The translations under genes and the position numbers were made by a program. A stretch of DNA of 62,712 nt from Microgenomates group bacterium Gr01-1014_16 (GTDB lineage Bacteria; Patescibacteriota; Microgenomatia; CAZETR01; Amesbacteraceae), in assembly GCA_007376345.1 (NCBI GenBank), contig VMGA01000003.1, forward strand, positions 1 to 62,712. Reading direction: 5' to 3'. Under the pieces are notes generated by a model. It did not search any database and had not been told where the DNA came from. It saw nothing but the letters and a program-made list of their open reading frames with translations. Positions 2,182 through 60,407 of the stretch are shown in pieces. The stretch's first letter is position 1. Every line of letters begins with the position of its first letter.

Positions 2182-2217
2182 CCCCCTCTTAAGTTAAGAG
2201 GGGGATTAGGGGGTGTT
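2182..2217 (+). repeat. palindromic hairpin element, variant copy (E1)
   Basis: ccccctcttaagttaagagggggattagggggtgtta, lying between the pgk stop and the gap start. Confidence 0.6.
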
Positions 2218-3103
2218 ATGAAATCGCTTCAATCCCAACTAAAGTTCCCGTACTCAAATACTCCAACATTGCCCCACCGCCCACCGATATCCAATCAAAT
2301 TTTTCTGTCAGCCCAAACATGTCAATTGCTCTTTCAATATCTCCCCCCCCGGCTACTTTATAAGCGTGACTCCCAGCAATTGCATTCAAAACTTCTTTAG
2401 TTCCCCGGCTTGAGTTTTCATTTTCATATTTTCCCATCACCCCCGCCGCCAATATCACCTCAGCGCTCGAAATTTCATGAATATAATTATTGATAGCCTC
2501 GTCAGAAATATCCAGCCCGTCCGGCCGCAAGTCCACTCCCACCAGTAATCCTCCTTTCAACACAGCAGCAAACCTATTCCCCATTTTATCCGCGAATTTT
2601 TGTTTCTCCTCGACTTTTACTCCACCAATCACCAAAATTCTCTTCCCCGGCTTCTCCCATATTTGACCTAACTTCTCTATCTCTATCCCAAATCTCAAGC
2701 CTATTACTATTTCTTTACCCTGCTTTTTCATCAACTTTGGCAGAGCATCAATCGACGCGTGGTCCCTGTGGCTCGTTGCGAATGCCTCGTTTACATATAC
2801 ATCCCACCCCTCGGCCAACTGCTCGGCAAATTTCTCACTATTTCCCTTCTCTCCGGGATTATCCCGCAACCTATCATCAAACTCCGCTCTGGGAAATTCA
2901 ACCCGCAAATCATCCACCACCCGGTATTTCGTCTCCGTGTGCCCAATTACCTTAATCTTTTTTGCACCCTTTTCCAGCAAATATTTCACCACTTGTCTCA
3001 CCGACTCCGTCCGCAGGTTGTCTTTATCATCCACATCCAAATCCCCCCGTACTAATATGTTTTTTTCGGAAAAATTAATATCCTTGACTGTTAATAAATT
3101 CAT
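2216..3103 (-). CDS. pgk: phosphoglycerate kinase, unusually short (295 aa)
   Basis: PGK motifs are present in order: RGDLDV, NEAFATSHRDHAS, GGVKVEEK, GGGD, GGGAMLEYL. The protein is about 100 aa shorter than canonical PGK. Confidence 0.75.
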   Translation of the reverse strand: MNLLTVKDINFSEKNILVRGDLDVDDKDNLRTESVRQVVKYLLEKGAKKIKVIGHTETKYRVVDDLRVEFPRAEFDDRLRDNPGEKGNSEKFAEQLAEGWDVYVNEAFATSHRDHASIDALPKLMKKQGKEIVIGLRFGIEIEKLGQIWEKPGKRILVIGGVKVEEKQKFADKMGNRFAAVLKGGLLVGVDLRPDGLDISDEAINNYIHEISSAEVILAAGVMGKYENENSSRGTKEVLNAIAGSHAYKVAGGGDIERAIDMFGLTEKFDWISVGGGAMLEYLSTGTLVGIEAIS

Positions 3104-3143
3104 TTTGGTTCCCCTCTCCGGATAATACCCCTTCCTTTTGGTT

Positions 3144-3183
3144 TCCCTCCCCTAAATTAGGGGAGGGATTAAAGGGTGAGGTA
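3144..3183 (+). repeat. palindromic hairpin element (E2)
   Basis: tccctcccctaaattaggggagggattaaagggtgaggta, lying between the rpiB stop and the pgk start. A half-copy (cccctctccgg) at 3108-3120 provides the pgk SD. Confidence 0.7.
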
Positions 3184-3221
3184 TTATTCGGGTCAGGGGT
3201 GAGGTGATATAAAAATCGAGA

Positions 3222-3692
3222 TCAGGTTTTATTATGTTTCTCAAAGACAGCCCCCTCATACCTGGCTATTTTTTCAATCCTCCTCATATAACGCTCGCTT
3301 TTGACAAACTCCGTCTCCAAAAACCGCTCCACCAGTTTCAATGCTTCTTCCTCGGTTACGTTGTCCGATGCCAGCGCCAATACATTTATATTGTCATCCT
3401 TTCTGCCCGCGTACACTTGATCCGCTTCAAATCCCAATCCGCACCGCACTCCCCTCACTTTGTTCGCCGCAATTTCTACCCCCACTCCCGATCCGCACAA
3501 CACTATTCCCATATTTTTGTCCGGCGACTGGACCACCCGCTGCGCCACGTCAATCGCATAGTCCGCGTAATCATCTCCATGGTCGTAACTAAACGCCCCC
3601 ACATCCTCAAACTCATACCCCCGCCCCTTCATCCAGCGGTCAATCGTCGCCTTCATCTCAAACCCCCGATGATCAGCTCCGATATAAATCAT
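3222..3692 (-). CDS. rpiB: ribose-5-phosphate isomerase B
   Basis: 156 aa. IGADHRGFE and LCGSGVGVEIAANK are typical of RpiB/LacAB. Confidence 0.9.
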   Translation of the reverse strand: MIYIGADHRGFEMKATIDRWMKGRGYEFEDVGAFSYDHGDDYADYAIDVAQRVVQSPDKNMGIVLCGSGVGVEIAANKVRGVRCGLGFEADQVYAGRKDDNINVLALASDNVTEEEALKLVERFLETEFVKSERYMRRIEKIARYEGAVFEKHNKT

Positions 3693-3967
3693 ACTTTCAA
3701 GCTTACCGTCAGTTTACCCCCCAGCGCCCCCGCTAGCCTTTCCAAGAATGATAACGTCGGCTTGGTCTGGGCGTTTTCCACCCGGGAAATAACCGACTGC
3801 TTAGTCTTCATTTTACGCGCCAACTGCGCCTGTGTCATCTTCTTCTCAATCCGGGCCTTAATTAATGCTCTCGCCACTTCATACTCCAACCTGGTTTTCT
3901 CCCAAGCCTTCCTAAATTCCGGATCCTTCATCAAAATTTTCCTGTGTTCTTCCCACGTCATCGGCAT
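3689..3967 (-). CDS. XRE-family HTH antitoxin (HigA-like)
   Basis: HTH MTQAQLARKMKTKQSVISRVENAQTKPTLSFLERLA. It lies immediately downstream of a Gp49/HigB-like toxin. Confidence 0.8.
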   Translation of the reverse strand: MPMTWEEHRKILMKDPEFRKAWEKTRLEYEVARALIKARIEKKMTQAQLARKMKTKQSVISRVENAQTKPTLSFLERLAGALGGKLTVSLKV

Positions 3968-3999
3968 ACCTCACAAAATATCACAATATTGCGATAAAG

Positions 4000-4347
4000 T
4001 CAATGTCTCAATTTGTAATCAACCAACCGCTTCATGGCAATGGACATTTCTTTTTCTGGTGTTTTCTGGGTTTTCTTTACAAACCCGTGCAGTAGCAAAA
4101 ATATCTTTCCGCTTTTAGCTAAGTACAAAATTCTGGTTGCTACTTCACCACTAGTCCGTAACTCCCACAAGCCAGTCCCTTTCAATTTCTTTACATGAGG
4201 CGCTCCCACCATGACACCGAATTCCCTCATCAAATCCAGAACGGAATAAACTTTAGTCCTCGGATCCACTGGCAAACCAAGAATGAAATCCTCAACCGGC
4301 CTCTCGCCTCTTGCGTTCTCGTAATACTCAATCTCCCATTTTTCCAC
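4000..4347 (-). CDS. Gp49/HigB-like RelE-superfamily toxin
   Basis: LWELRTSG..RILY..LLHGFVKKTQKTPEKE. It is a paralogue of 56445..56753. Confidence 0.75.
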   Translation of the reverse strand: MEKWEIEYYENARGERPVEDFILGLPVDPRTKVYSVLDLMREFGVMVGAPHVKKLKGTGLWELRTSGEVATRILYLAKSGKIFLLLHGFVKKTQKTPEKEMSIAMKRLVDYKLRH

Positions 4348-7416: not shown

Positions 7417-7851
7417 GCTCTTCGCGATTTCTCCGGCCAGCCCTTCCATTGGACTGATTATTTTTATAAACACGTCACCTTTTTTCGTCAGTGCTGTCTG
7501 ATTACCGTCCTTAGTCAGTACTGTAACATTCGTGCTAACGTGGTCCGGCTCTCTGTCAAGTTTTCCCAGCCTAGCCACTTCCTCATCCACCAAATCCGGC
7601 AAGTTCTTCCCAGACTTCTCAATCTTCAAGTTCTTCTCAATTTCCCAATCTGCCGGATACTTTAACCTTATCCCCAGCTCATCATTCTGATAAATCTCCG
7701 TCAATTGAACATTGAACATTGAACTTTGAACATTTATTTTTGGACCTTTCCCATATTCCCTAATTTCTTCTCTTCTCCAGCTTTTATAATCCCAAACCGA
7801 AAACCCCACCCCCACTACCAGCAAAAGTGCTACAATTATCTTTAGTCGCAT
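7402..7851 (-). CDS. hypothetical membrane-anchored protein
   Basis: Start moved to MRLKIIVALLLVVGVG (a TM helix). The gene contains a TTGAACA tract encoding SSMFNVQL. Confidence 0.45.
   Translation of the reverse strand: MRLKIIVALLLVVGVGFSVWDYKSWRREEIREYGKGPKINVQSSMFNVQLTEIYQNDELGIRLKYPADWEIEKNLKIEKSGKNLPDLVDEEVARLGKLDREPDHVSTNVTVLTKDGNQTALTKKGDVFIKIISPMEGLAGEIAKSLVSF
7704..7734 (+). repeat. TTGAACA-type heptamer tract, in-frame in 7402..7851
   Basis: attgaacattgaacattgaactttgaacatt, encoding VQSSMFNVQL. Confidence 0.85.
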
Positions 7852-7852: not shown

Positions 7853-8224
7853 ATGAAAGTAATTTTATCACTTCTGTTACTGTTACTGTTTACTTCGCCC
7901 GCCATAGCTTTAGCGGCGGCGGGTCCGGATGCTTCTCTTCGCACCGATCCCACCCACCGCTACGTTTTCCTGACTTTCTCCAACCTCCAAACAGCATCCA
8001 AAGTCAGCTATTCCCTGACCTACGAAACAAATAGCGTCACCAAAGGATTGGAGGGGGGCTTCAGGCTATTTGGCCGCCAGCGCCGCTCCGTCCGCCGCCA
8101 AATATTAGGCACCTGTTCGTCCGGCAAATGCGTTTTCCACGCCAACCCCCACTCCCTCCAGCTCAACGTCACCTTTACTCTCAAATCCGGCCTTACCACA
8201 ACAATTTCTAAATCTTTACAGTGA
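7853..8224 (+). CDS. hypothetical secreted protein
   Basis: Clear signal peptide MKVILSLLLLLLFTSPAIALAAA. It is divergent from 7402..7851 with a 1-nt spacer. Confidence 0.45.
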   Translation: MKVILSLLLLLLFTSPAIALAAAGPDASLRTDPTHRYVFLTFSNLQTASKVSYSLTYETNSVTKGLEGGFRLFGRQRRSVRRQILGTCSSGKCVFHANPHSLQLNVTFTLKSGLTTTISKSLQ

Positions 8225-8268
8225 TTGAGCATTGAACATTGAACATTGAACATTGAACATTGAATATT
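8224..8268 (+). repeat. TTGAACA-type heptamer tract (about 6 units), intergenic
   Basis: attgagcattgaacattgaacattgaacattgaacattgaatatt. Confidence 0.9.
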
Positions 8269-19165: not shown

Positions 19166-19202
19166 TCCCTCTCCTAGGTTAGGAGAGGGCTAGGGTGAGG
19201 TA
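19166..19202 (+). repeat. palindromic hairpin element (E3), 3' arm is the msrA Shine-Dalgarno
   Basis: tccctctcctaggttaggagagggctagggtgaggta. On the minus strand, GGAGAGGG lies 6 nt before the msrA ATG. Confidence 0.75.
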
Positions 19203-23429: not shown

Positions 23430-24863
23430 TCACTTTACTCCTATGATTTTATCCCTGTCAATCCACTTGCTTGCCGCCAACTTCCCGTTATAAATCAATT
23501 TATAATCAAACCCCTCAATTCCCGGCTGACGCTTGATGAGTATCTTATACTGATTTCCCTCTCCGAAAAATATCTCTCTCTTCTTATCCCCCTCTCCTAA
23601 ATTAGGAGAGGGGTCAGGGGTGAGGTATTGGAGCTCCGCCGTTATCGTCTTTTTCGCCGGCACGTTCGCCCAAAACCCGATTATTTGTAAATCGCCCCTT
23701 TCTTCAACGTTATACATATCTGTGCTCATTTCTTGCCTCAGCGAATTCGGCATGACAAAATCCTTCTCCGTCGCCAATCTTAATTCTCGTCCTTGGAGCT
23801 TGACGGCTTGGATCTTGTGGCTTGAGGGAATTACAACTCTGTTGTAATTCACGTACTGTCCGCCCCAAAACACCGGCGGCTTCGTGGCATCAAACTCATT
23901 CTCATTTTTCCAAGTTATTGTTAACTTAACTTTATTATTCTCAATCTCTTGTCTCACGTCTCTATCCATACAACAATTGGCTTTATTAGCTCCTAAATTA
24001 CTCTCCACTATATATAAGTAGTCCGATTTTTTGTCCCATCCGTCTTCAAGCCTTCCCCCCCACCTCCGAATTTCCGCATCCTTTATCCACACCAAAATCT
24101 GTTTCTTTCTCAGCTCATCCCACACCAATTTGCCCAATTTGCCCAATTCGACTAATCCGGCATCTTTTACTTTTCTCACCAGCGCACCACCTACTGAACC
24201 CAAAAAATCCTTCTTTTTAGTCGATCCGGGGAAAAAGCCTTCTTCTGCATATCTTTGTGCAAGTGAATACAAGTTTTGTCCGGTAACCGTCTTATCAAAA
24301 TCTAACACTTTCACCCCTCCGAGTACATCAATTATCTTAGCAACTGTTGTTTGATTGATCGCAACAATCCCCGCTGGTTCCGGTTCGTTACCTTGTTTTA
24401 GAAACCAGGCAATTGTCGCCGCAGAAGAAGCAAAATCCGGATCCCAATTGCTATCCCGCAGCCACCAGTAACCAATCTTAAAAGCTTCCTGCACCGGATA
24501 CGGCGGTTCCACGTGTCCCGGCAATTGCCCATCCGGTACATATATATCCTGAATGTCTATACTCTTCACTCCGCATTGAACATTGAACATTGAACATTGA
24601 ACATTTATTTTCGCGTAGCTTCCCATAAACCCCCCCGTCGCCCGGAGTTCGGTATTATTCTGCAACATCACGTAGTACGTTTTATTATCCAGCAATCTAT
24701 CCAAATCCACCAACCCGCTCGTGCACCAGTTAAACAACTTATGATCCCCCAAATTATTATTCAACATCCTCCTCATTACACCCGCTGCACTCCACCCACA
24801 CCCCCCTCCCAACAACCCCAAAATCCCTAAACTACCTAAAACTATAAACCACACTTTCTTCAT
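23430..24863 (-). CDS. DUF4012-domain secreted/membrane-anchored protein
   Basis: YYVMLQNNTELRATGGFMGSY is the hallmark DUF4012 motif. The gene carries a TTGAACA tract and a palindromic element in-frame. Confidence 0.75.
   Translation of the reverse strand: MKKVWFIVLGSLGILGLLGGGCGWSAAGVMRRMLNNNLGDHKLFNWCTSGLVDLDRLLDNKTYYVMLQNNTELRATGGFMGSYAKINVQCSMFNVQCGVKSIDIQDIYVPDGQLPGHVEPPYPVQEAFKIGYWWLRDSNWDPDFASSAATIAWFLKQGNEPEPAGIVAINQTTVAKIIDVLGGVKVLDFDKTVTGQNLYSLAQRYAEEGFFPGSTKKKDFLGSVGGALVRKVKDAGLVELGKLGKLVWDELRKKQILVWIKDAEIRRWGGRLEDGWDKKSDYLYIVESNLGANKANCCMDRDVRQEIENNKVKLTITWKNENEFDATKPPVFWGGQYVNYNRVVIPSSHKIQAVKLQGRELRLATEKDFVMPNSLRQEMSTDMYNVEERGDLQIIGFWANVPAKKTITAELQYLTPDPSPNLGEGDKKREIFFGEGNQYKILIKRQPGIEGFDYKLIYNGKLAASKWIDRDKIIGVK
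23588..23626 (+). repeat. palindromic hairpin element (E4), in-frame inside the DUF4012 gene
   Basis: cccctctcctaaattaggagaggggtcaggggtgaggta, translated as ..YLTPDPSPNLGEGD.. Confidence 0.75.
24574..24606 (+). repeat. TTGAACA heptamer tract (4 units), in-frame in the DUF4012 gene
   Basis: Encodes KINVQCSMFNVQCGV. Confidence 0.9.
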
Positions 24864-26304
24864 TGTCTTTATGAATTATTACATAATCGACTTTCGCGTC
24901 TATTTCTGGCGGCTTAAATCCCGAGTACCCATTAACTAGTTTTTTATCATGTATCCAACTGTAATACATCCTTTGCAACTCTATATCTTCGTTCCCCCTC
25001 GGCAACTCCAATATCACCTCTCCCGGCTGGTCCTTTAACCATTTATAAACCTTCGGAAATTCCTCCGGCCTCGGCAACTCCCTGTATTTTACTAAGTGTG
25101 TCCCTCCAAATATCGCAACAAATATCGCTCCTACAAGCCCTAAGGTTTTTTTATTGAACATTGAATATTGAATATTGGACATTCCTAGTGCAATCAGTCC
25201 GCTTGCCCCAAACCCCGCCAGCCACATCCACCTGCTAGTTGTCCGCGAAGCTTGCAATCCCGGAACTGCGTAATACGCTGCCGCGTACGGCAGCGGTATC
25301 GGATATCCGCCAACTTTGACCGTCTCCCCCCGCCATCTCAAGGTCGGCCCCATCGCCATCACCACCCCAATAAATAATATCAATATTAACCACTTTCCCT
25401 CTCCTAATTTAGGAGAGGGATAAGGGTGAGGTACTACCAGCCTAATAACAGCAACTGCCAGCAATATGAATAGACCCGGCGAATAGAACTTCCCCCACAA
25501 ATCATTCACCGAAATACTGCCGTGTGCCGCGTCCCTAATCGTCCTCACAAACCCCATCTCTCTCGAAACTTTGGAATAAACTCTAACTACCGGCCACGCA
25601 ACTACTCCCGCAATTACACAAATAAATAATAATTTCTTGAATTTATTGAATCTTGAATCTTGAATCTTGAATATTAAAGCGGCAAGTATTATTGTAGCCG
25701 CAAAATACACCGGCAACACAGTCTGCCACATTTGCAACCCCAAAAGTATCGCCCCCACCACCCCCTTAACCCATTTTTCCCCCTTAACCCATTTTATTAT
25801 TAACCAACAACCAACTAACCAATACTGCATTCCCCACATCTGCAAATGTACCTGGTACTCCCACCTTATTTGTGACAGTCCAAATGCCACACTTCCCACC
25901 ACCGCTCCCCAACTGTTTCCGGCAATTTCTTTAAACCAAAAATATAAAACTAGCATTGTCGTCACTTGTCCCACCGCCATTACCCATCCACTGGCAACTG
26001 CCGGATTTTTACTCAATATCACCGGAAAATATGCCACCGCAGCGTCTATAAAAAATAACTCGGAATAGGCCAAAGTATTCTTATACGGGTAATAAATGTT
26101 TCCCTGAAAAAGCAGGTGTTTGCACTCACCCGGATTGCGAATACAACCCGAAATAATTTTTGCCTCCCGGTTAATAACCCAGTTTATAAACCACCCGTCA
26201 TATCCATAGTCCGGAATCCGGCTCTGCCGGACCACAACCGGCCACACCGACCACAACGCTACCGCGGCAACAACTACCGCCGGCGCCAGTTTCCTAAAAT
26301 CCAT
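24832..26304 (-). CDS. polytopic membrane protein, GT-C-fold glycosyltransferase-like (tentative)
   Basis: More than 10 predicted TM helices. Start moved to MDFRKLAPAVVV. Contains three in-frame repeat insertions. Confidence 0.45.
   Translation of the reverse strand: MDFRKLAPAVVVAAVALWSVWPVVVRQSRIPDYGYDGWFINWVINREAKIISGCIRNPGECKHLLFQGNIYYPYKNTLAYSELFFIDAAVAYFPVILSKNPAVASGWVMAVGQVTTMLVLYFWFKEIAGNSWGAVVGSVAFGLSQIRWEYQVHLQMWGMQYWLVGCWLIIKWVKGEKWVKGVVGAILLGLQMWQTVLPVYFAATIILAALIFKIQDSRFNKFKKLLFICVIAGVVAWPVVRVYSKVSREMGFVRTIRDAAHGSISVNDLWGKFYSPGLFILLAVAVIRLVVPHPYPSPKLGEGKWLILILFIGVVMAMGPTLRWRGETVKVGGYPIPLPYAAAYYAVPGLQASRTTSRWMWLAGFGASGLIALGMSNIQYSMFNKKTLGLVGAIFVAIFGGTHLVKYRELPRPEEFPKVYKWLKDQPGEVILELPRGNEDIELQRMYYSWIHDKKLVNGYSGFKPPEIDAKVDYVIIHKDNEESVVYSFR
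25153..25183 (+). repeat. TTGAA(C/T)A heptamer tract, in-frame in 24832..26304
   Basis: Encodes MSNIQYSMFNKK. Confidence 0.85.
25396..25433 (+). repeat. palindromic hairpin element (E5), in-frame inside membrane protein 24832..26304
   Basis: tccctctcctaatttaggagagggataagggtgaggta, translated as ..PHPYPSPKLGEGK.. Confidence 0.75.
25636..25675 (+). repeat. TTGAATC heptamer tract, in-frame in 24832..26304
   Basis: Encodes FKIQDSRFNKFKK. Confidence 0.85.
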
Positions 26305-28711: not shown

Positions 28712-30252
28712 TACATCCCCTTTCTCATAAATATCAATGCCGCCCCATCTTCATACACCATCTTCCATCCGACCGCTTCCAGTCTTACCGGCAATGGTTT
28801 CGGTTTTTTCCCCGGCTTCCCTAGTTCAATATTTATCCACACTTTAGTTTTAACCAGATCCCTCTTCGGCCACAACACCGCCTCCACTCCATGTTTATCA
28901 AAAATCGGCTCAAAATCCGCCCCCTCCCGGGTAATGTCCAAAAACTCCTCAAACGCCGAATAACCAGGCATTAAACATTGAACATTGAACATTGAACATT
29001 TCCATGATGGCATTCTCCCGTCCACAAATGTCTTATACTCCGGCAACTTCCAAATCAGATACCCTCCCCAATCATATGTAGAAAACAGCCTTCCCATGTC
29101 AGGCTGTCCTTTTAGCCATGCCACGGCTTTTTGCGGATAAAAACTGGCCTCACTCAAACTCCTCGAAAACCACAACTCCAACCCGCCCTGGACCACAAAT
29201 ACCATCACTGCCACTCCCACCATCAATTTATAAAATCCGCCCAGTCTCCGTCTCGCCTCGTCGTTTACCCCCACATCCTCCTCAAAAGCTTTCCACACCT
29301 TCCCCAGTCCCCATCCGGCCGTCAGGGCAAATACCGGCATATGCCGCAGGCTGGACAATCCTGCCACAAAAGTTCCCCCCACTATTAATCTTTCCGGCCA
29401 ACCCATCACCCTTCTGTATTTCCACCCCCACATCCCCACCATTGCCGCTAGCATCCAAAATGCTAAATCCACCCCCCCGTACCACGGCAGCCACTCGGCA
29501 ATCGTCGTCTTCAGACTCCGGTCCCCCGCCACTTCCCCAATCTCTTTCCACAACCTAATTCCATACGGGTTTATTAATACTGCCGCCACAACCAACCCCC
29601 CAACAAATAAGGCTTTTACTGCTTGGCTTCCCTCTCCTGCGGCGAAGCCACGAGCTTGCGAGATGCTAGGAGAGGGACCAGAGGGTGAGGTAGGGGGTAA
29701 GGTATTAGTAAGAATTTTCCCCGTCACCCCAGCTCCCAAAATCGCCAAACCCATCGCCACTCCGCTATGCAAATTTACCCACCAGCCGAAAATCACCGGC
29801 ACTACCCATTTCCACTTTTGCCAAACAGCATCTTCAAGTAATCTCAATATCACGGCAATCAGTAACCAATCTTCTACCTGTTGCCTCACTCCGGCTCTTC
29901 CGATCAAAACTGCTGCTCCCAATATCGCAGTCACTACCCCCCATCTTCCCTTGTCTGTCACTAGCCACAATGCTCCTATCGCCATAGTCGCGTACACCGC
30001 CGCCAAAAACTCTGTTCCCCCGGCCTGATACCCCACCCAAACCAGCACATCAGACAACCAGGCGTGGTCAATATATTTCCAATCGGGCATGGTGTACGAA
30101 AACGGATCGGTCACGGGCAACCCCGACTTCACAATCACTTCTCCCGTTCTCAAGTGCTGCCCAAAGTCCGGGTCCAGCATCCACAGCCCCTTCACCAAAA
30201 ACACCACCCACAATAAAACCCAACTAACAACCCGCCAGTAATTCTTTTTCAT
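28711..30252 (-). CDS. polytopic membrane protein with a C-terminal soluble domain
   Basis: 513 aa with about 10 or more TM helices. Contains a palindromic element (expanded loop) and a TTGAACA tract in-frame. Confidence 0.45.
   Translation of the reverse strand: MKKNYWRVVSWVLLWVVFLVKGLWMLDPDFGQHLRTGEVIVKSGLPVTDPFSYTMPDWKYIDHAWLSDVLVWVGYQAGGTEFLAAVYATMAIGALWLVTDKGRWGVVTAILGAAVLIGRAGVRQQVEDWLLIAVILRLLEDAVWQKWKWVVPVIFGWWVNLHSGVAMGLAILGAGVTGKILTNTLPPTSPSGPSPSISQARGFAAGEGSQAVKALFVGGLVVAAVLINPYGIRLWKEIGEVAGDRSLKTTIAEWLPWYGGVDLAFWMLAAMVGMWGWKYRRVMGWPERLIVGGTFVAGLSSLRHMPVFALTAGWGLGKVWKAFEEDVGVNDEARRRLGGFYKLMVGVAVMVFVVQGGLELWFSRSLSEASFYPQKAVAWLKGQPDMGRLFSTYDWGGYLIWKLPEYKTFVDGRMPSWKCSMFNVQCLMPGYSAFEEFLDITREGADFEPIFDKHGVEAVLWPKRDLVKTKVWINIELGKPGKKPKPLPVRLEAVGWKMVYEDGAALIFMRKGM
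28969..29001 (+). repeat. TTGAACA heptamer tract, in-frame in 28711..30252
   Basis: Encodes KCSMFNVQCLM. Confidence 0.9.
29629..29704 (+). repeat. palindromic hairpin element with an expanded loop (E6), in-frame inside 28711..30252
   Basis: tccctctcc-[28-nt insert]-ggagaggg-accagagggtgaggtagggggtaaggta, translated as ..TLPPTSPSGPSPSISQARGFAAGEGS.. Confidence 0.65.
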
Positions 30253-38159: not shown

Positions 38160-38873
38160 TTATCTAGCCAGCACAAACCCCCAAACTTGCTTCACCCCAG
38201 CCTTTTTTAGCACGCGGGCGCACTCTCTCATCGTTGCCCCCGTCGTCCACACATCATCCACCAAAATAACAGCCGAAGGCGTTCTGATTTCCCTCTCCTT
38301 AAATAAGGAGAGGGGCAGGGGTGAGGTAGTAAAAGCGCCACTCATAGCGCTTAATCTCTCTTCCCTCGTCCTTCCTACCTGCGGCTTCGTTTCCTTAATT
38401 CTCGACAACAAATGACTATTGCATGCCAATGAATGCCGCGCAGCAAATGACTTAGCTATAATTTCCGCCTGATTAAACCCCCTCTCCCGCAATCTCTTCG
38501 GGTGCAGCGGCACCGGCACAACCACCGGCTTAGTTTTCAGGAATTTTTGAAAATTGAAAAATTGAGAATTATTTGAAAATTGAAAATTGAAAATTGAAAA
38601 TTCCCGCAAATAATCAAAGTAGAAATTGTATTTTGTTTTAGTAATTAATTTGCGGGTAATCCCCTCATATGTCCACAAACACGTCAGCCCCTCCAAATCT
38701 CCCTTGCAATATTTATGTCTTAATCCATTCCTGGAATTCCGCCCGCAAGTGGGACAAATCTGTTCCTCCTCCCACAATCCCACCTCGCAGTCACTGCACA
38801 CATAACTGCCGTATTTCCCACACCCCACGCACTTCTTCGGAAAAATCCAATCCAAAATATCCGAAATATTCAT
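38160..38873 (-). CDS. comF: ComF-family phosphoribosyltransferase-domain protein
   Basis: N-terminal double CxxC zinc finger and C-terminal VILVDDVWTTGATM PRTase motif. A heptamer tract and a palindromic element are both in-frame. Confidence 0.8.
   Translation of the reverse strand: MNISDILDWIFPKKCVGCGKYGSYVCSDCEVGLWEEEQICPTCGRNSRNGLRHKYCKGDLEGLTCLWTYEGITRKLITKTKYNFYFDYLREFSIFNFQFSNNSQFFNFQKFLKTKPVVVPVPLHPKRLRERGFNQAEIIAKSFAARHSLACNSHLLSRIKETKPQVGRTREERLSAMSGAFTTSPLPLSLFKEREIRTPSAVILVDDVWTTGATMRECARVLKKAGVKQVWGFVLAR
38290..38328 (+). repeat. palindromic hairpin element (E7), in-frame inside comF
   Basis: tccctctccttaaataaggagaggggcaggggtgaggta, translated as ..TTSPLPLSLFKERE.. Confidence 0.75.
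38543..38602 (+). repeat. TTGAAAA heptamer tract, in-frame in comF
   Basis: Encodes FSIFNFQFSNNSQFFNFQKF. Confidence 0.85.
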
Positions 38874-39768: not shown

Positions 39769-39807
39769 TCCCTCTCCTAAATTAGGAGAGGGATCAAGGG
39801 TGAGGTA
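39769..39807 (+). repeat. palindromic hairpin element (E9), 3' arm is the smpB Shine-Dalgarno
   Basis: tccctctcctaaattaggagagggatcaagggtgaggta. On the minus strand, GGAGAGGGAG lies 6 nt before the smpB ATG. Confidence 0.75.
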
Positions 39808-44920: not shown

Positions 44921-45023
44921 ACGGGGATTAAGGCCGCACAAGGCGGCCTAGAGACACCGGGACTTACTCGTCCGCTCTCCAACCGCTATTATATACTTCC
45001 CATCAATGCTAAACTATCGGTAG

Positions 45024-51018: not shown

Positions 51019-51035
51019 GTTATTGTATACCTGCC

Positions 51036-52397
51036 ATGAAAAAACTCGCCGCAACTCTTCTTACACTTTTATACTTTTACACTGTTACACTTTCGTCCGC
51101 CCCCCCCGCCTCCGCCGCCTGGTACAACCCCACCACCGAAGAATTCTACGGCAAAGTTTACGGCACCAACCCCGTCAGCTCCAATGATGAAATCTTTGGC
51201 GAACGCTACACATTTGCCCAAGTCAATTGGATAGTAAATAGCTTAGCTATTATCTTCGCTCCTCCAAACATGACCCCTACCCAATTTCTCGACATTATTA
51301 GAGGAATTATCGCTTCTCTTGTCGCAGGCACACAACCAACCTTCCAACAATACGCCCAACTGGGTGTTCCTGGAATTCTCATGGGCGCCATAAACGAAAC
51401 TTACACCAACCCCCCGGCTTCCGGCATAAAATACGTCAGCGACACCCTCGCCAAGTTTGATCCCGCACCTCCGGTCTACGCCCAAGGGTACGGCTATAAA
51501 TCCCTCGAAATCGCCCAAACTCTCTGGAAAGCCTCCCGCAATATGGCCTATCTTCTTATGATTGTCCTTTTGGTTGTTTCTGGCTTCATGGTCATGTTCC
51601 GCGTCAAAATCAACCCCCAAACAGCAGTTACTCTCCAACTAATGATTCCCAAAATCATCATCACTTTACTACTGGTCACTTTCTCCTATGCAATTGCCGG
51701 CTTTGTCATCGATCTCATCTATGTCGTCATCACTTTCATTATCTCGATGCTCGCCATGCCCGGCATCGCCGTCATTACCGACGCCCCCAGAGCCATCCGG
51801 TTCTTCACGGGGGGATATATTGGTCCAATTGTTTACTTCATCGCCCCCTGGATAATGATCGCGTTTCTTGGTGCGGTAGGTGGTGGCCTTATAGGTCTTG
51901 TTGGCGGACCACTCGGAGCACTAATAACCGGAGCAATAGTCCCCATCATTTCCCTTATTGTTATGATCTTTCTTGTCTGGACTCTCTTCAAAATCTGGTG
52001 GCTCCTCCTTAAAACTTACATCGTTCTTCTGTTTTCAATTATAGTTGGTCCCTGGCAAATCATGCTGGGGTTACTTCCGGGTCAATCTGGTTTTGGCCCT
52101 TGGTTAAGAAATATAATTGCCAACGCCTCCGTCTTCGTCGCCGTCCCTATAATGTTCCTTATCAACATGCTTTTTTGGAAACCCGGATTCGGCTTAGACG
52201 CTTTGGCTGGACTCTTTAGTCCTGTGGGTGTAGTCCTTCCCTCAACTGGTGTCAGCCCCGGTCTTCCCTTTGTGAACGGCGGCGGAATTCTCAACTTAGC
52301 CCTTGGTTACGCCGTCCTTGCCCTCACCCCCAAAATCGCCGAAATCATCAGGGATGCCCTCAAAGTCCCAAATGGGAATCTTAACTGGCACTGTTAA
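51036..52397 (+). CDS. polytopic membrane protein, VirB6/TrbL-like (tentative)
   Basis: Start at MKKLAATLLTLLYFYTV (signal peptide). An ectodomain of about 150 aa is followed by six or more Gly-rich TM helices. It sits directly after the pilin array. Confidence 0.4.
   Translation: MKKLAATLLTLLYFYTVTLSSAPPASAAWYNPTTEEFYGKVYGTNPVSSNDEIFGERYTFAQVNWIVNSLAIIFAPPNMTPTQFLDIIRGIIASLVAGTQPTFQQYAQLGVPGILMGAINETYTNPPASGIKYVSDTLAKFDPAPPVYAQGYGYKSLEIAQTLWKASRNMAYLLMIVLLVVSGFMVMFRVKINPQTAVTLQLMIPKIIITLLLVTFSYAIAGFVIDLIYVVITFIISMLAMPGIAVITDAPRAIRFFTGGYIGPIVYFIAPWIMIAFLGAVGGGLIGLVGGPLGALITGAIVPIISLIVMIFLVWTLFKIWWLLLKTYIVLLFSIIVGPWQIMLGLLPGQSGFGPWLRNIIANASVFVAVPIMFLINMLFWKPGFGLDALAGLFSPVGVVLPSTGVSPGLPFVNGGGILNLALGYAVLALTPKIAEIIRDALKVPNGNLNWHC
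51060..51095 (+). repeat. TTTTACAC-type tract forming the signal-peptide core of 51036..52397
   Basis: Encodes LTLLYFYTVTLS. Confidence 0.75.
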
Positions 52398-52407
52398 ATC
52401 GTAATTA

Positions 52408-56173: not shown

Positions 56174-56208
56174 TTCGCAATAATATACTATCGGTCGGAT
56201 TTTCGCAA

Positions 56209-56415
56209 CCCCTTCCCACACTACAGGCCGCAACGATTTTTCAACCTAGGGCGCACCAAACCCCGAACCAGGAGCGTCGAATAGCGCCGTGCCCGCCAAA
56301 GAGTCGCTCCGTGAGCCGCAGTTCAAATGAACTAAGGCGAACGGTAAGATCTGGCGGGAGTGTGAGGGCGTCCTTTTTTCCGTCCGCTATTTTGGACGAG
56401 CAAAAAAGCGGACAA
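56209..56415 (+). repeat. non-coding module of about 200 bp, copy A (22-bp motif ... conserved stem-loop 56382-56413)
   Basis: Shares cccgaaccaggagcg and gagtgtgagggcgtccttttttccgtc.gct.ttttggacgagcaaaaaagcggacaaa with copy B. Confidence 0.65.
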
Positions 56416-56444
56416 ATCAAATCCAAAGATGATATTCTAAATTA

Positions 56445-56753
56445 ATGGAGATTAATACTCCACCGGAAGTAGACAAATTTTTTAAATCCCTCGAAAAACC
56501 TACTCGCTCCAAACTGCTTCGGACTCTTGATCTTCTCCTTGTCTTTGGTTCCACTCTCGGACTACCCCACTCCAAAAAACTTGCCCCAGATCTTTATGAA
56601 CTTCGCATTCGCGGTCAGCAAGAAATCCGAGTTTTTTACACTCTCAGTAATAATCAGGTCTTTTTACTCCACGGTTTTGTCAAAAAAACCCAAAAAACAC
56701 CACCGCAAGAGCTGGCCAAAGCTCAAAAACTTCTTCAAACCCTTGACGTATAA
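56445..56753 (+). CDS. Gp49/HigB-like RelE-superfamily toxin
   Basis: LYELRIRGQQEIRVFY..FLLHGFVKKTQKTPPQE. It is a paralogue of 4000..4347. Confidence 0.75.
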   Translation: MEINTPPEVDKFFKSLEKPTRSKLLRTLDLLLVFGSTLGLPHSKKLAPDLYELRIRGQQEIRVFYTLSNNQVFLLHGFVKKTQKTPPQELAKAQKLLQTLDV

Positions 56754-56776
56754 CATATCTGTGATATCATCATCCT

Positions 56777-57055
56777 ATGAAATATAAAAGTTACACAACA
56801 CTCAAACGCGAATTGCTTTCTGACCCAGAGGTTAAAGCGGAATATGTTCGACTTGAGCCGGAATATAAGCTAATTGAACAAATCATCCGTAAACGCATCC
56901 AAAAAAGCCTTACCCAGTCTCAATTGGCCAAACTTGCCGGCACCAAACAAAGTGCCATTTCCCGTCTGGAATCTGGATCATACAATCCTAGTCTCAATTT
57001 TCTCCAAAAAATATCCCACGCCCTCAATTCCCAACTCCAAATAATTCTGAACTAA
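56777..57055 (+). CDS. XRE-family HTH antitoxin (HigA-like)
   Basis: LTQSQLAKLAGTKQSAISRLESGSYNPSLNFLQKISHAL. Confidence 0.8.
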   Translation: MKYKSYTTLKRELLSDPEVKAEYVRLEPEYKLIEQIIRKRIQKSLTQSQLAKLAGTKQSAISRLESGSYNPSLNFLQKISHALNSQLQIILN

Positions 57056-57060
57056 CCCCG

Positions 57061-57272
57061 CCCTCCCCACACTACAGGCTGCAGCGATTTTTCCTATCTA
57101 TTCGTTTCTACCCGCAAGTGGGAGCGTTAAACGCAAAATTCAAAAACACCTTGCTTGGTGAGGGCGTAATATAAACCCTGAACATAATCAATTTTTGAAT
57201 TTTGCGTAGCGAGCCTTGCGGCGTGCTTTCTTTGGTTCATTTCTTTCGCACGAGCAAAGAAATGAACAAAAA
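57061..57272 (+). repeat. non-coding module of about 200 bp, copy C (22-bp motif ... stem-loop 57235-57267)
   Basis: Same architecture as copies A and B, but the stem sequence differs (GTTCATTTCTTT/AAAGAAATGAAC) around a loop ending ACGAGC. Confidence 0.55.
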
Positions 57273-57274
57273 CA

Positions 57275-57532
57275 TCACTTCTTCCCCAACCCCTCATCAT
57301 GCATTCCAATCGTCTTCAAAACCAATTGTTCTCCCACAAACTCAAACGTAAATCGATAGTGAATATCTACTCTTGCTTCCCAAGTTGTCTCCGACTTTTT
57401 CTTCGTGTGCAACGACGGATGGCGAAAATCGCCCTGCATCAATCTCATCTGTTTCAAAAACTTTTTCTGGATCTCCCTCGGTAATCTGGAAAACTTCTTA
57501 TCAAACCCGCCGGTTCGAACAAAACTCCACAT
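57275..57532 (-). CDS. RelE/ParE-superfamily toxin
   Basis: 85 aa. F.KKFSRLPREIQKKF...WEARVDIHYRFTFEFVGEQLVLKTIGMHD follows the RelE-fold pattern. Confidence 0.6.
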   Translation of the reverse strand: MWSFVRTGGFDKKFSRLPREIQKKFLKQMRLMQGDFRHPSLHTKKKSETTWEARVDIHYRFTFEFVGEQLVLKTIGMHDEGLGKK

Positions 57533-57534
57533 AT

Positions 57535-57789
57535 CTACAATCCGAACTTCTTCTCCATTGCCTTAACTAAATCGTCTATCGACGCATGCTCTGTATACCT
57601 CCCCGCCCGATAGTCTTCCATTGCCAGTTCGTCTTCCTTCACCCACCACTCTTCCGTCCCCTCCCTAGCCGGCAGCGCCCGCACAATCTTTTTATACAAC
57701 TTCTCCACCGCTTCCCGCACAACAACCACCTCCCGATACAAGGACATAGCATCATCAGCCTTAGAAATATTCACTGTTTTCCCATTCAT
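57535..57789 (-). CDS. putative antitoxin of the downstream RelE-like toxin
   Basis: 84 aa, 2-nt gap to the toxin. No family recognised. Confidence 0.45.
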   Translation of the reverse strand: MNGKTVNISKADDAMSLYREVVVVREAVEKLYKKIVRALPAREGTEEWWVKEDELAMEDYRAGRYTEHASIDDLVKAMEKKFGL

Positions 57790-57820
57790 AAAACCATTAT
57801 ACTACACCAGAAAAAATCCT

Positions 57821-57842
57821 CCCCTCCCCACACTACAGGCCG
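57821..57842 (-). promoter_or_regulatory. 22-bp conserved motif (minus strand CGGCCTGTAGTGTGGGGAGGGG) followed by TAGTATAAT and the ATG of 57535..57789
   Basis: One of six copies (56209, 57061, 57821, 58728, 59531, 60164). In five of them a -10-like box and a start codon lie downstream on the minus strand (within 40 nt in four copies, about 110 nt in the 59531 copy); the 57061 copy has no downstream minus-strand gene. Confidence 0.45.
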
Positions 57843-57868
57843 CAAGATAGTTTCGACTCTTCTGATTA

Positions 57869-57907
57869 TCCCTCTCCAAAATTTTGGAGAGGGATCAAGG
57901 GTGAGAT
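57869..57907 (+). repeat. palindromic hairpin element (E10)
   Basis: tccctctccaaaattttggagagggatcaagggtgagata, just after the HEPN stop. Confidence 0.7.
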
Positions 57908-57915
57908 AAACTCCC

Positions 57916-58389
57916 TTACTTCTCCTCATCCAATTTTTTCATTTCTTCTTCTACTTTTTCATTCTCGCTTCTTACCATCTCTTCCGTCACCTCCCCGGAG
58001 ACACCCAACTTCTTTCTAATTTCAACCTGGACAGCCTCGGCCGCAACCAGCGCTTCTTTCGCTTGATCTTTTGTTGTCACTACAAACTTTTCATCTGGAT
58101 ACCGCGGCTCAATATAAAACCCATCTAAAAAATCGCATTTTGGTCTCAACACACGAAGTTTCTCATCGCCAGCCGAACAAATCTCAAGTAATTCAACCAG
58201 GTCGTGTGTTTTTGTAAACTTGAGTTTCCTTCCCACTACAAAAGCCTTCAGGTACTTTTCCGCAGCTTGCTGGAACATAAAGCAAATTTGATCATAATAG
58301 GGCTGTTCGGACTCAAACGTCGTTTTAGCAAAACCAAAATCTTGGTCTGCTTTATACAACCACTCCCACACCACCAGTCTATGTGCCAT
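57916..58389 (-). CDS. HEPN-domain protein
   Basis: Start at MAHRLVVWEW. ...FQQAAEKYLKAF..THDL..L...YIEPRYPD contains the HEPN R-x4-6-H-type context. It overlaps the upstream MNT by 11 nt. Confidence 0.7.
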   Translation of the reverse strand: MAHRLVVWEWLYKADQDFGFAKTTFESEQPYYDQICFMFQQAAEKYLKAFVVGRKLKFTKTHDLVELLEICSAGDEKLRVLRPKCDFLDGFYIEPRYPDEKFVVTTKDQAKEALVAAEAVQVEIRKKLGVSGEVTEEMVRSENEKVEEEMKKLDEEK

Positions 58390-58702
58390 AAAGCACTTTC
58401 CCCTGATCAAAGACAGATAACACAAATGGATCTTCAAGATACAGTCTTTTTTTCAACTCTTTCGGACTATAAACCAGCGCATCAACTGCTGTATCGTCCG
58501 GCAATAGCCCACGCACCTCCACATGCCTATCGTGAACTGGCACGTCATCCACCCCGTCTTTAATAATCAACAAGTCAAAATCACTGTCTTCCCCAAAGTC
58601 TCCTCGAGCCATCGATCCGAACAAGATTACCTTCTCTGGTCTATAACCTCTAACCAGAGTATCGACCACTCTATCCAACTTAATTTTAATATCCCCAGGC
58701 AT
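58379..58702 (-). CDS. MNT-type nucleotidyltransferase (antitoxin-like partner of HEPN)
   Basis: LFGSMARGDFGEDSDFDLLII (GS-x10-DxD). Confidence 0.8.
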   Translation of the reverse strand: MPGDIKIKLDRVVDTLVRGYRPEKVILFGSMARGDFGEDSDFDLLIIKDGVDDVPVHDRHVEVRGLLPDDTAVDALVYSPKELKKRLYLEDPFVLSVFDQGKVLYGT

Positions 58703-58727
58703 GCAAAAATTATAACAGAAATCCTAA

Positions 58728-58860
58728 CCCCTCCCCACACCACAGGCCGGATGAATAATGTGTCTCTTCTAATTAGCCCTCTCCTGAAATCAGGAGAGGG
58801 ACGAAGGGTGAGGTACAGGGCGGGTGAGGTAAACCCCCAACCTATATCTGCACCCCATAC
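58728..58860 (+). repeat. 133-bp composite repeat, copy A (22-bp motif plus palindromic element E11 plus tail)
   Basis: Nearly identical to 60164..60296 apart from a few mismatches near the 5' end. Its right end abuts a truncated MNT gene. Confidence 0.8.
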
Positions 58861-59080
58861 CATTAACTGACAATCCACGTAACTCCATTTCCTCATCCAA
58901 ATAATTCTTCCCAAAAAATCGTGAAACGATACACACATCAATGTCGCTGCTTTCGTCATCCCGACCCTTAGCAAACGATCCAAAAACATAAGCCTTATCC
59001 ACCGGATATTTTTTACCTACAACTGCGACAAACCTCTTAGCTGCTCCAATCGCGTCCTGTCTACTCATTTTTGCCTCCAA
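58790..59080 (-). pseudogene. MNT-type nucleotidyltransferase with its C-terminus replaced by a repeat element
   Basis: VFGSFAKGRDDESSDIDVCIV is intact. From about residue 74 onward the ORF reads through the 133-bp repeat (58728..58860): GMGCRYRLGVYLTRPVPHPSSLS. Confidence 0.55.
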
Positions 59081-59414
59081 ACAACGACAACAAATAATCC
59101 CGCAAGCTGCTAGATTTATTCATCCAGATATCAACAAACTCCTTAGTCGCTCCTTTTCGAAAACTTCTTTTATAATCATCGTATCTGGCATTAATATTAA
59201 AAGTCGAAATCTTTTTCAGATCTTTACCCGTTTCGTTCTCTGTTTCCAAACCCACTTTTTTAGCTAACAATGTCAAGTCATGTGTCATCAACGGATGATC
59301 GTCTTTTTTGTAGTAATGCAAAGCCTTAAGAATCTTTTCTAATGACAACTGCGCAAAAAATAGCGCATTATGCAAATCCTTCCCTGATTTCCACACCACC
59401 TTAGCTTTTTTCAT
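59061..59414 (-). CDS. HEPN-domain protein
   Basis: LFFAQLSLEKILKAL...THDLTLLA...INARYDDY. Confidence 0.7.
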   Translation of the reverse strand: MKKAKVVWKSGKDLHNALFFAQLSLEKILKALHYYKKDDHPLMTHDLTLLAKKVGLETENETGKDLKKISTFNINARYDDYKRSFRKGATKEFVDIWMNKSSSLRDYLLSLFGGKNE

Positions 59415-59530
59415 ACACTCATTATAGCCGCCACGCTCAATAATAACAAAAGTGGCGGATATATACCCGTCGAAATGCGTTCATACGCATAACATTTACC
59501 TCATGATGGGTATATACCAGAAAATCCTAA

Positions 59531-59748
59531 CCCCTCCCCACACTACAGGCCGCAATGATTTTTCAATCTAAGACCCGAACCCCGAACCAGGAGCGCAATG
59601 AGCGCGAGCAAAGTTCAATGCTTGGCGAAGAACGTAATACAAACTTCGAGCATAACTGCTTTGTAAAGCGCGAATAGCGAGTGTGAGGGCGTCCTTTTTT
59701 CCGTCTGCTTTTTTGGACGAGCAAAAAAGCGGACAAAACGATCTACTT
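59531..59748 (+). repeat. non-coding module of about 200 bp, copy B (22-bp motif ... stem-loop 59703-59734)
   Basis: See copy A. It lies between a degraded toxin stop and the HEPN gene 59061..59414. Confidence 0.65.
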
Positions 59749-60136
59749 CTTCCCCAATCCCTCGTCATGCATTCCCACCACTTCCAACACCATTTTGCCC
59801 TCCATTTCCCTTCCCCTCATTCGATAATGCAAATCCACCCTAAATTCCCACACTTCGGAATTTCCCATTCTTTTTGCCCCCAATCCCGGATGACTCATGT
59901 TTGTCTGAATAAATCCTACTGCTTTTTTCGCCTTCTTCCCTACCGGCCTCAATATCCTCCTGAGACAACAACTGCTCCCGTTCCCACCACGCCTCACTTC
60001 TCTCTTTCAAAAAGCCGTCGGGCAGGGACTTCAAAAGCCACGTTTTCAGTTCTCTAACCACCGCCCCGCTCGGCCGCTTGGCCGCCAAAAAATCCACCGC
60101 TATTCTTTTACCAATTGTCACATTCAAAGTGTCCAT
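59743..60136 (-). pseudogene. degraded paralogue of the 57275..57789 antitoxin-toxin pair (internal deletion/fusion)
   Basis: The antitoxin-like N-part (EAWWEREQLLSQEDIEAGR) and the toxin-like C-part (VWEFRVDLHYR...VLEVVGMHDEGLGKK) are in different overlapping frames. The antitoxin C-terminus and the toxin N-terminus are both missing. Confidence 0.5.
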
Positions 60137-60149
60137 ACTCCAAAGTATA

Positions 60150-60407
60150 TCACATCCCCGATTCCCCCCACCACACTACAGGCCGGATGAATAATGAGTC
60201 TCTTCTAATTAGCCCTCTCCTGAAATCAGGAGAGGGACGAAGGGTGAGGTACAGGGCGGGTGAGGTAAACCCCCAACCTATATCTGCACCCCATACGGCT
60301 CTGTTTTTTGCATAGGAGCCAAATAAATAAGCTTGGGATACGGGAATTTGCTTTTTTACCAACTCCACAAAACGTCTGGCAACTAAAATTGCACTATCAG
60401 TACTCAT
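60150..60407 (-). pseudogene. MNT nucleotidyltransferase remnant truncated after the GS motif by a repeat element
   Basis: AYLFGSYAKNRA, then the translated repeat (60164..60296). The DxD part is absent. Confidence 0.55.
60164..60296 (+). repeat. 133-bp composite repeat, copy B (22-bp motif plus palindromic element E12 plus tail)
   Basis: Nearly identical to 58728..58860. Its right end abuts the MNT remnant 60150..60407. Confidence 0.8.

Follow-up and report, generated by a model that had tools for sequence, protein, structure and literature searches.

A BoxC/PIT/TM-type repeat of Candidatus Amesbacteria with copies in frame within genes and beside start codons

A short repeat present in 12 copies was characterised in a stretch of 62,712 nucleotides (nt) of DNA from Microgenomates group bacterium Gr01-1014_16 (contig VMGA01000003.1, positions 1 to 62,712, assembly GCA_007376345.1; hereafter the window). 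The element carries the BoxC/PIT/TM intrastrand-triplex motif, and it is probably a Candidatus Amesbacteria subfamily of these repeats that invades genes, is non-autonomous and has had its purine arm co-opted as a ribosome-binding site. The best homologues of ComF, SmpB, DUF4012 and the membrane protein are those of Candidatus Amesbacteria (Microgenomates, candidate phyla radiation, CPR), at 65-75% identity.

Copies and anatomy of the element

The pattern CCCTCTCC-N5-9-GGAGAGGG was found nine times in the window, on the + strand only, and was expected 0 times from 100 dinucleotide-preserving shuffles. A fuzzy search, allowing one mismatch or a long loop, added three copies: 29630-29704, which has a loop of 31 nt; 3145-3183, in which the arms CCCTCCCC/GGGGAGGG form a compensated hairpin; and 2182-2216, with the arms CCCCCTCT/AGAGGGGG. 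The total of 12 in 62.7 kb, dispersed and far above chance, agrees with the 12 same-polarity copies that a first-pass annotation had reported from the sequence.

Each copy is built of CCCTCTCC[T] as pyrimidine arm, [A]GGAGAGGG as purine arm and GGGTGAGG[T] as third segment. The two arms form perfect stems of at least 8 bp in 11 copies, and the remaining copy is the one with the 31-nt loop; the core hairpin is predicted at -16.4 kcal/mol over 10 bp and formed in every copy that was folded. The first loop is otherwise AT-rich and 5-8 nt long, with a conserved TA at the 3' end of the element. In 12/12 copies the + strand has, 3' of the hairpin, a G-rich third segment that reads (A/G)GGGTGAGGTA, or its counterpart in the 2182 variant. 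When the 12 copies were aligned, conservation ended at a T-rich 5' edge and at the terminal TA, giving a unit of about 38-41 nt; the typical element is 38 nt long and the long-loop form 75 nt. The copies are as follows.

2182..2216, +: variant CCCCCTCT-TAAGTTA-AGAGGGGG-ATTA-GGGGGTGT, lying between gap (ATG at 2160) and the stop codon of pgk, to which its last T belongs
3112..3206, +: composite copy upstream of pgk, made up of a solo CCCTCTCC (3112-3119), the hairpin CCCTCCCC-TAAATTA-GGGGAGGG (3145-3167) and two third strands (AGGGTGAGGTA at 3173-3183 and a second copy at 3196-3206)
19167..19202, +: intergenic copy filling the spacer between the sigma-70 gene and msrA (ATG 19160), starting 4 nt past the sigma-70 stop
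23557..23627, +: copy within the DUF4012 gene (amino acids (aa) 413-425, YLTPDPSPNLGEG), with a further 33 nt that end in a second copy of the arm (23557-23564)
25397..25433, +: copy within the membrane protein gene 24832-26430 (VPHPYPSPKLGEG)
29630..29704, +: long-loop copy within the membrane protein gene 28711-30252 (aa 183-208), with a 31-nt loop and two tandem third strands
38291..38328, +: copy within comF (aa 182-195, TTSPLPLSLFKERE), read in another frame and with the 8-nt loop TTAAATAA
38891..38928, +: intergenic copy between the comF start (38873) and an ssrA promoter-like site (38939-38966)
39770..39807, +: intergenic copy upstream of smpB (ATG 39761)
57870..57908, +: toxin-antitoxin (TA) island copy, 7 nt past the stop of a HEPN gene, in a diverged copy of a 133-bp block
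58777..58831, +: copy with two tandem third strands, in the 133-bp block 58728-58860
60213..60267, +: copy in the 133-bp block 60164-60296, again with two third strands in tandem, overlapping a truncated nucleotidyltransferase open reading frame (ORF)

Folded as RNA, the composite copy before pgk forms an extended composite palindrome (z = -5.25). The two blocks 58728-58860 and 60164-60296 are 97% identical, so the 133-bp duplication described in the first-pass annotation is real, and a third copy of it at 57821-57953 is 60% identical. That annotation had read a 28-nt loop insertion in the copy near 29629; the extra module is 24 nt (31 vs 7 nt).

A conserved module of about 24 nt (CTCGCAAGCTCGTGGCTTCGCCG, mRNA strand) is nested in the hairpin loop of the long-loop variant, at 29638-29668 in the window and at 1678-1708 of a syntenic contig (L227). 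As it is also present in a different gene of relatives (P0242, P0245), the module is a subfamily marker and not a one-off insertion.

At its gathering thresholds Rfam gave no match at any copy, and matched only tmRNA, six tRNAs and DUF3800-III. A solo GGGGTGAGGTA on the minus strand at 42600 was rejected as a further copy, being ordinary coding sequence without a hairpin.

Identity with the BoxC/PIT/TM motif

The third segment GGGTGAGG repeats GGAGAGGG in mirror order, A or T standing opposite A, and therefore fits the rules of class II purine-motif triplexes (G*G:C, A*A:T, T*A:T; reverse-Hoogsteen). Ten of the 11 short-loop copies reach 8/8 triads on the + strand, and the opposite orientation gives at most 7. 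The flanking bases extend the fold to 9-10 triads, with Y = (T/C)CCCTCTCCT, R = AGGAGAGGG(A/G) and H = (A/G)GGGTGAGGT, which accounts for the conserved T of 'GGTGAGGT-A'. Judged from these letters, the G-rich single strand could form a class II purine-motif triple helix of 9-10 triads.

The same intrastrand-triplex motif, BoxC/PIT/TM, was described in E. coli and cyanobacteria by Holder et al. 2015 (PMC4666352). Table 1 of that study gives the 23 TMECO repeats of E. coli K-12 (for example CCCTCTCCCTGTGGGAGAGGGCCGGGGTGAGGGC), which are the BoxC repeats of the 1990s (Bachellier) and the PIT elements of Hoyne and Maher 2000, and the window cores CCCTCTCC, GGAGAGGG and GGGTGAGG are identical to the 8-nt cores of TMECO. 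The first-pass annotation had defined the element by the pairing of a Shine-Dalgarno (SD) arm with an anti-SD arm and was not aware of in-frame insertion having been described for such a hairpin. The element is neither defined by that pairing nor undescribed: the 'UACCUCACCCU' segment is the complement of the mirror-repeat third strand, and the whole unit is the published motif, found across many phyla.

Covariation of the third strand

In the 2182 variant the arms CCCCCTCT/AGAGGGGG are followed by GGGGGTGT, a perfect mirror of the purine arm with 8/8 triads, so that all three segments covary. The same was seen in about 1.1 Mb of retrieved loci, in which 271 perfect 8-bp hairpins with pyrimidine and purine arms were found. 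An 8/8 mirror strand was present on one side of 228 of them, and the other side mostly scored 3-5 triads. Fifty hairpins had stems outside the search pattern, and the majority of these keep a mirror third strand; the pairs include GGGGAGGG with GGGTGGGG (seven times), AGGGGGGA with AGGGGGGT, GAGAAGGG with GGGATGAG, and AGAGGGGG with GGGGGAGT.

The covariation continues beyond the core. Among 234 non-identical copies, the base just 3' to the purine arm was compared with that just 5' to the third strand; the pairs were A/A in 71 and G/G in 87, with A/G and G/A in two each (Fisher p = 6e-41, with no correction of the counts for common descent). On the 5' side of the pyrimidine arm stands the Watson-Crick partner (T:A in 66, C:G in 86). 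The first-pass annotation had proposed folding the RNA and looking for covariation; the hairpin formed in every folded copy, and the third strand co-varies with it. Mirror symmetry with freedom between A and T is not producible by copying, which favours selection on, or recognition of, the folded structure.

These data also bear on whether the G-rich strand acts as a switch between G-quadruplex, hairpin and duplex, as proposed for the E. coli repeats (Kaplan et al. 2016, PMC5100583). Four G-runs are present in the G-form (GG-AGA-GGG-N-GGG-TGA-GG), and circular dichroism of the E. coli versions is described in that study as compatible with a G-quadruplex plus hairpin. The outer runs are only GG, however, so that the consensus tracts (GG, GGG, GGG, GG) differ from the four tracts of at least three G that characterise HPGQ elements. 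The coordinated change of the ninth position to T:A*T (CCT / AGG / GGT) keeps the triad and removes a three-tetrad G-quadruplex, and the variant stems AGAGGGGG/GGGGGTGT and GAGAAGGG/GGGATGAG obey mirror rules and not G-tract rules. Such a switch is thus very unlikely. The three-way covariation, over many stems and phyla, points instead to triplex geometry as the conserved feature, rather than a G-quadruplex or a hairpin alone.

In-frame copies within protein genes

Four copies lie within ORFs and are read through without stop codons, in two different frames, as the first-pass annotation had noted. The PSP(N/K)LGEG-like loops that it ascribed to all four are encoded by three, and the comF copy is read in another frame. 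In that frame the usual TAATTTA loop would make a stop, and the 8-nt loop variant of comF removes it, which is consistent with selection for translation through the element.

All four were compared with orthologues. The ComF copy lies between GAF and VLLVDDVWTTG, in a hypervariable linker; the element is missing from most orthologues, the closest among them (P0002, 69% identical), and six have related element-like peptides at the site. The DUF4012 copy lies in a variable loop between AELxY and YKxLVKRQPGI. Here YLTPDPSPNLGEG is present in the 73% identical orthologue P0122, in which the 33-nt extra piece is absent, and P0124, P0125 and all distant orthologues are without the element; the DNA of the syntenic contig L227 has an empty site there. 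For the membrane protein 24832-26430, P0243, P0244, P0248 and P0249 have no element, and P0242 and P0245 have a long-loop version at the same site; the 31-nt loop of L227 at this site closely matches that of the window copy at 29630. Most of the best 150 homologues of the membrane protein 28711-30252 align as two stretches with a break at aa 177-215, and the closest (P0361, 65% identical) is without about 30 aa at the site. By these sequence comparisons, each of the four in-ORF copies was inserted into a variable loop and is lacking in orthologues, and the likeness to Rickettsia palindromic elements (RPEs) drawn in the first-pass annotation holds in this respect. They share the RPE property of lying in frame in ORFs whose orthologues lack them, and do not belong to the 100-150 bp RPE family of Rickettsia.

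Several copies show signs of instability. The 33-nt indel in DUF4012 is bounded by GGAGAGGG repeats, short- and long-loop alleles occur at one site, third strands are found in tandem, and a remnant (TACCTCACCCCGGAGAGG) lies upstream of smpB in the related locus L152.

Pfam matches near or around the copies were MsrA, SmpB, DUF4012, ComF, sigma-70, GAPDH, PGK and RpiB, which confirms the identities previously given to msrA, smpB, DUF4012 and ComF. The membrane proteins 24832-26430 and 28711-30252 had no Pfam match, and their earlier 'GT-C-like' label is unconfirmed.

The element is a source of protein-loop variation, and PSPxLGEG and GEGxGVR peptides, like hairpin-embedded SDs, should be recognised in annotation as repeat products. 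In-frame copies in essential genes of CPR bacteria also offer natural filled and empty sites from which insertion rules may be deduced.

Intergenic copies and ribosome-binding sites

The purine arm GGAGAGGG ends 6 nt before the msrA ATG and 8 nt before that of smpB, for which 6 nt had been stated earlier. Neither gene has another SD-like motif within 20 nt of its ATG, and at both the arm is part of a hairpin predicted at about -16 kcal/mol, which would sequester it. This part of the original SD proposal stands for these two genes. A general role does not, nor does a fixed distance from start codons: the arm is 17 nt from the start of comF, 21 nt from that of gap and about 80 nt from another, four copies are in ORFs, and the smpB copy is absent from orthologous loci. 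The hairpin arm is at SD distance only at msrA and smpB, and in the pgk mRNA a solo GGAGAGGG (from 3112-3119) lies 8 nt before the ATG.

The spacer upstream of smpB is 56 nt in the window and contains a 38-nt element. In ten Amesbacteria loci (L147-L156) it is 0-10 nt, or the upstream stop overlaps the start, and GGGAGG often lies within the end of the gene upstream of smpB. These smpB-region loci contain no hairpins with pyrimidine and purine arms at all, and apart from the L152 remnant there is no element upstream of smpB. The short element-free spacers of the relatives imply that the copy upstream of smpB is an insertion.

A dedicated translational riboregulator, in which the hairpin sequesters the SD (GGAGAGGG) and frees it under some condition, would be in keeping with the position of the arm at msrA and smpB, with its place inside the predicted 10-bp hairpin of -16.4 kcal/mol, and with the use of canonical GGAGG-type SDs elsewhere in the genome. 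Such a regulator should sit at a fixed position and be conserved at orthologous genes, and only two or three of the 12 copies are at SD distance, with four in ORFs and the rest 17 to about 80 nt from a start. Orthologous smpB loci are without the element, which elsewhere occurs in both orientations, far from genes and in many phyla, and the conserved third segment and its mirror covariation would be left unexplained. Dedicated regulation of this kind is therefore unlikely. The supply of an SD is best read as a co-option forced by insertion into minimal spacers, and not as the function of the element. The purine arm happens to contain GGAG, and insertion would have displaced the ancestral SD of smpB and msrA, after which the arm may have been recruited as the ribosome-binding site. 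A census of SDs with crude longest-ORF starts was too noisy to give a figure for SD usage across the genome.

Five intergenic copies begin 0-15 nt past the upstream stop codon. This position, together with the stable hairpin, would suit a REP-like RNA element that stabilises mRNA 3' ends or acts as a transcription terminator or insulator between genes. The spacers are so short, though, that any intergenic insert must adjoin a stop codon, and four copies lie within ORFs. The hairpin is not followed by a T/U run, an intrinsic terminator scan rated 0 copies as terminator-like, and PIT elements in E. coli had neither terminator nor promoter activity (PMC4666352). A role of this sort is accordingly quite unlikely.

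The tmRNA gene ssrA (38980-39336; Rfam, 103 bits) lies between comF and smpB. Its promoter-like site at 38939-38966, a near-consensus TGGACA-16-TATAAT with an upstream TG, starts 11 nt past the 38891-38928 copy.

Orientation of the copies

All 12 window copies have one orientation. With the three TA-island copies counted once this leaves about ten independent events, and the two-sided p is about 0.002. The genes of the window lie mostly on the minus strand, and the GC skew of the + strand is extreme, at -0.2 to -0.43, which makes the coding strand very rich in G. The mRNAs of the minus-strand genes carry the C-rich form UACCUCACCC-N-CCCUCUCC-loop-GGAGAGGG, and the G-form is always on the template strand of genes. 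Other Amesbacteria loci have nine antisense and two sense copies, and the in-ORF copies there are antisense in 7/7 cases. Across phyla the orientation relative to genes is mixed (intergenic, ++ 34 vs -- 27; in ORFs, antisense 32 vs sense 19). This census used crude ORF calls and is a rough guide only, as shadow ORFs are likely in strongly skewed DNA.

One frame in three is open in either orientation, and compatibility with ORFs therefore does not account for the bias. Nearly all of this genome is transcribed, and the polarity might reflect selection that keeps a G-rich strand able to fold off the non-template or lagging-template strand. Alternatively, the route of insertion might be strand-specific. 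The strict polarity gives a testable prediction on transcription or replication conflicts.

Distribution in other bacteria

The pattern CCCTCTCC-N7-8-GGAGAGGG-N2-5-GGGTGAGGTA was found at no fewer than 119 loci in a collection of species-representative genomes. Among the matches listed are Nostoc, Calothrix and Scytonema, Pontibacter and other Bacteroidota, Chloroflexota, Ignavibacteria, Polyangium (Myxococcota) and many Patescibacteria. Many copies have ACCTCACCCC upstream and so form larger palindromes, and the window copy upstream of pgk is of this kind. The loop subfamily of the window (TAWWTTA) was found at 28 loci in genomes and at 64 in metagenomes. Of 70 copies at the latter, a crude ORF call placed 38 within long ORFs. 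Pfam-verified hosts of in-ORF copies in related contigs are ArgRS, a GT4 glycosyltransferase, DinB, PolX, an O-antigen ligase (Wzy_C), glycerate kinase and UvrB; these in-ORF copies occur in both orientations and give the peptides YLTPNPSPNLGEG or PSPKLGEGLGVRY.

In Nostoc, Calothrix and Scytonema a repeat of about 100 nt encloses the element. For Nostoc (L002-L004, L007-L009 and many others) the triplex unit was seen at a fixed place in a dispersed repeat of this length, ggattaaataaaatgcaaaacttcatcctgt...agccagggacataaattgtatgttatttaa. A fully palindromic form of the unit occurs in L097, and positions 1794-1952 of a cyanobacterial contig (L038) hold at least four whole triplex units head to tail with a 41-nt period.

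Extreme sequence conservation across phyla, the terminal TA conserved in the window copies and the tandem array of L038 would be in line with a protein-recognition site, bound by a nucleoid protein or by a trans-acting recombinase or transposase, with the mirror segment as part of the DNA-binding motif. Many stem sequences share the mirror geometry, though, which is a structural and not a sequence-specific rule, and no candidate protein was found among the window ORFs scanned. A recognition site of this type is highly improbable, and a repeat defined by its triplex geometry remains the preferred interpretation.

Spread of the element and weighing of the interpretation

We infer a small non-autonomous repeat defined by structure, which would have spread into the minimal gaps between genes and into tolerant surface or linker loops of proteins in a compact genome, and would persist only where the frame stays open. 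To our knowledge, BoxC/PIT/TM motifs have been known for about 30 years with no assigned function or spreading mechanism. We consider it possible, with low confidence, that the triplex elements of Patescibacteria are active, strand-specific, RPE-like gene-invading DNA, inserted via a single-stranded triplex-folded intermediate linked to replication or transcription, adding loops and rewiring ribosome-binding sites. If so, PSPxLGEG or GEGxGVRY loops would be added routinely to housekeeping proteins (ArgRS, UvrB, PolX, DinB, ComF), and these bacteria would offer a first experimentally tractable handle on what the cross-phylum triplex motifs do.

Variability of the loci, namely the 33-nt indel of DUF4012, the L152 remnant and the short- and long-loop alleles at one site, is as expected of a BoxC/PIT/TM repeat. 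Several observations count against the interpretation as a gene-invading subfamily of these repeats with a triplex fold. The strict TMECO consensus CCCTCNCCC-N3-6-GGGNGAGGG-N3-GGGNGAGGG has 0 matches in the window, the mismatch being the ninth stem position (T/A/T vs C/G/G), and dimethyl sulfate footprinting in E. coli was negative, with no triplex seen in vivo (PMC4666352). Many of the A/A cases in the covariation counts, which are uncorrected for shared descent, come from one Nostoc family, although the pattern still spans many families. The 12-copy alignment revealed no target-site duplications or conserved flanks beyond the T-rich 5' edge and the terminal TA, and no HUH/RAYT-type transposase was found among the window ORFs scanned, only a weak helix-turn-helix ORF (35800-36543). 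The patchy presence at one loop in several lineages could reflect an old insertion followed by loss, and not recurrent insertion. The polarity is not universal, with sense in-ORF copies in other lineages, and as all window copies lie among minus-strand genes the directions of transcription and replication are inseparable there.

Other features of the window

A second repeat family consists of tandem heptamers (ATTGAAC) in three to six units. The strict arrays number nine on the + strand and zero on the minus strand:

7702-7724, +: heptamer array
8223-8264, +: heptamer array
11732-11762, +: heptamer array
24572-24605, +: heptamer array
25152-25172, +: heptamer array
26957-26982, +: heptamer array
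28968-29000, +: heptamer array
40065-40088, +: heptamer array
43723-43748, +: heptamer array
11920, 25646, 38547, 39600, 41670: related heptamer arrays

Several heptamer arrays lie inside ORFs (DUF4012, both membrane proteins and ComF) and encode CSMFNVQC or FNFQF-type peptides that are absent from orthologues.

Positions 56207-60407 form a TA island with HEPN/nucleotidyltransferase and Gp49-like cassettes, separated by a 42-nt repeat in five copies (56207, 57058, 57819, 58726, 59529); near 57800 a TATAAT-like box is found downstream of the 42-nt repeat. The ORF 60150-60407 resembles a nucleotidyltransferase cut short by the 133-bp block. The GC skew has an exception at 12-16 kb (skew +0.03, GC 42%), which contains HATPase/DUF4325 and MerR genes and may be a foreign segment.

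The phosphoglycerate kinase (2216-3103) has just 295 aa. Both termini align with solved phosphoglycerate kinases, and two internal segments of about 40-50 aa are missing; truncation by the element was ruled out, since the N-terminus is intact and the shortening is internal. A DUF3800-III RNA (71 bits; 44882-44978, minus strand) overlaps the 3' end of the DUF3800 gene (44255-44920, + strand) on the opposite strand. ORFs of 794, 338, 499 and 891 aa at 31719-35110 (+) and 50898-55083 have no Pfam match. Some of the long + strand ORFs may be shadow ORFs, because they sit in DNA with a skew like that of the minus-strand genes.

Comparison with known systems

Of the known systems, the BoxC/PIT/TMECO repeats are alike in the three-segment architecture, the identical 8-nt cores and the class II triad rules, and also in being dispersed and multi-copy, in forming some palindromic composites and in varying in presence or absence among relatives. 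They differ in the ninth triad, T:A*T in the window and C:G*G in E. coli, and the window copies have an AT-rich loop and a 3' TA. About a third of the window copies are in frame within genes and all 12 have one polarity, whereas the E. coli copies are described as exclusively intergenic and without strand bias; the host also differs, being one of the Patescibacteria (CPR). Both E. coli studies (PMC4666352 and PMC5100583) stress the absence of copies within ORFs. The literature found describes neither triplex elements in CPR bacteria nor copies in frame within protein genes or of a single strict polarity, and these three features would be new for the repeats.

ROSE and fourU RNA thermometers share an SD-like arm paired in a hairpin just upstream of the ATG, as at msrA and smpB. 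Unlike them, the element has no conserved placement at start codons and is not conserved at orthologous genes, and most of its copies lie away from starts. REP/BIME and REPIN-RAYT systems are similarly short, GC-rich palindromic repeats that fill intergenic spacers, but REPs are species-specific, extragenic and RAYT-linked, while the window element is shared across phyla and no RAYT was seen among the window ORFs scanned.

The heterocystous cyanobacteria reportedly carry small dispersed repeats of 20-40 nt and heptamer repeats, nested in MITE-like repeats and heptamer arrays (Elhai et al. 2008). They would resemble the present case in the nesting of the Nostoc copies in a repeat of about 100 nt and in the heptamer arrays of the window.

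The RPEs, finally, are likewise palindromic repeats that lie in frame in genes at permissive sites and add short peptides which orthologues lack. They are set apart by their length of 100-150 bp, their restriction to Rickettsia and an unrelated sequence that has no polypurine/polypyrimidine mirror architecture.

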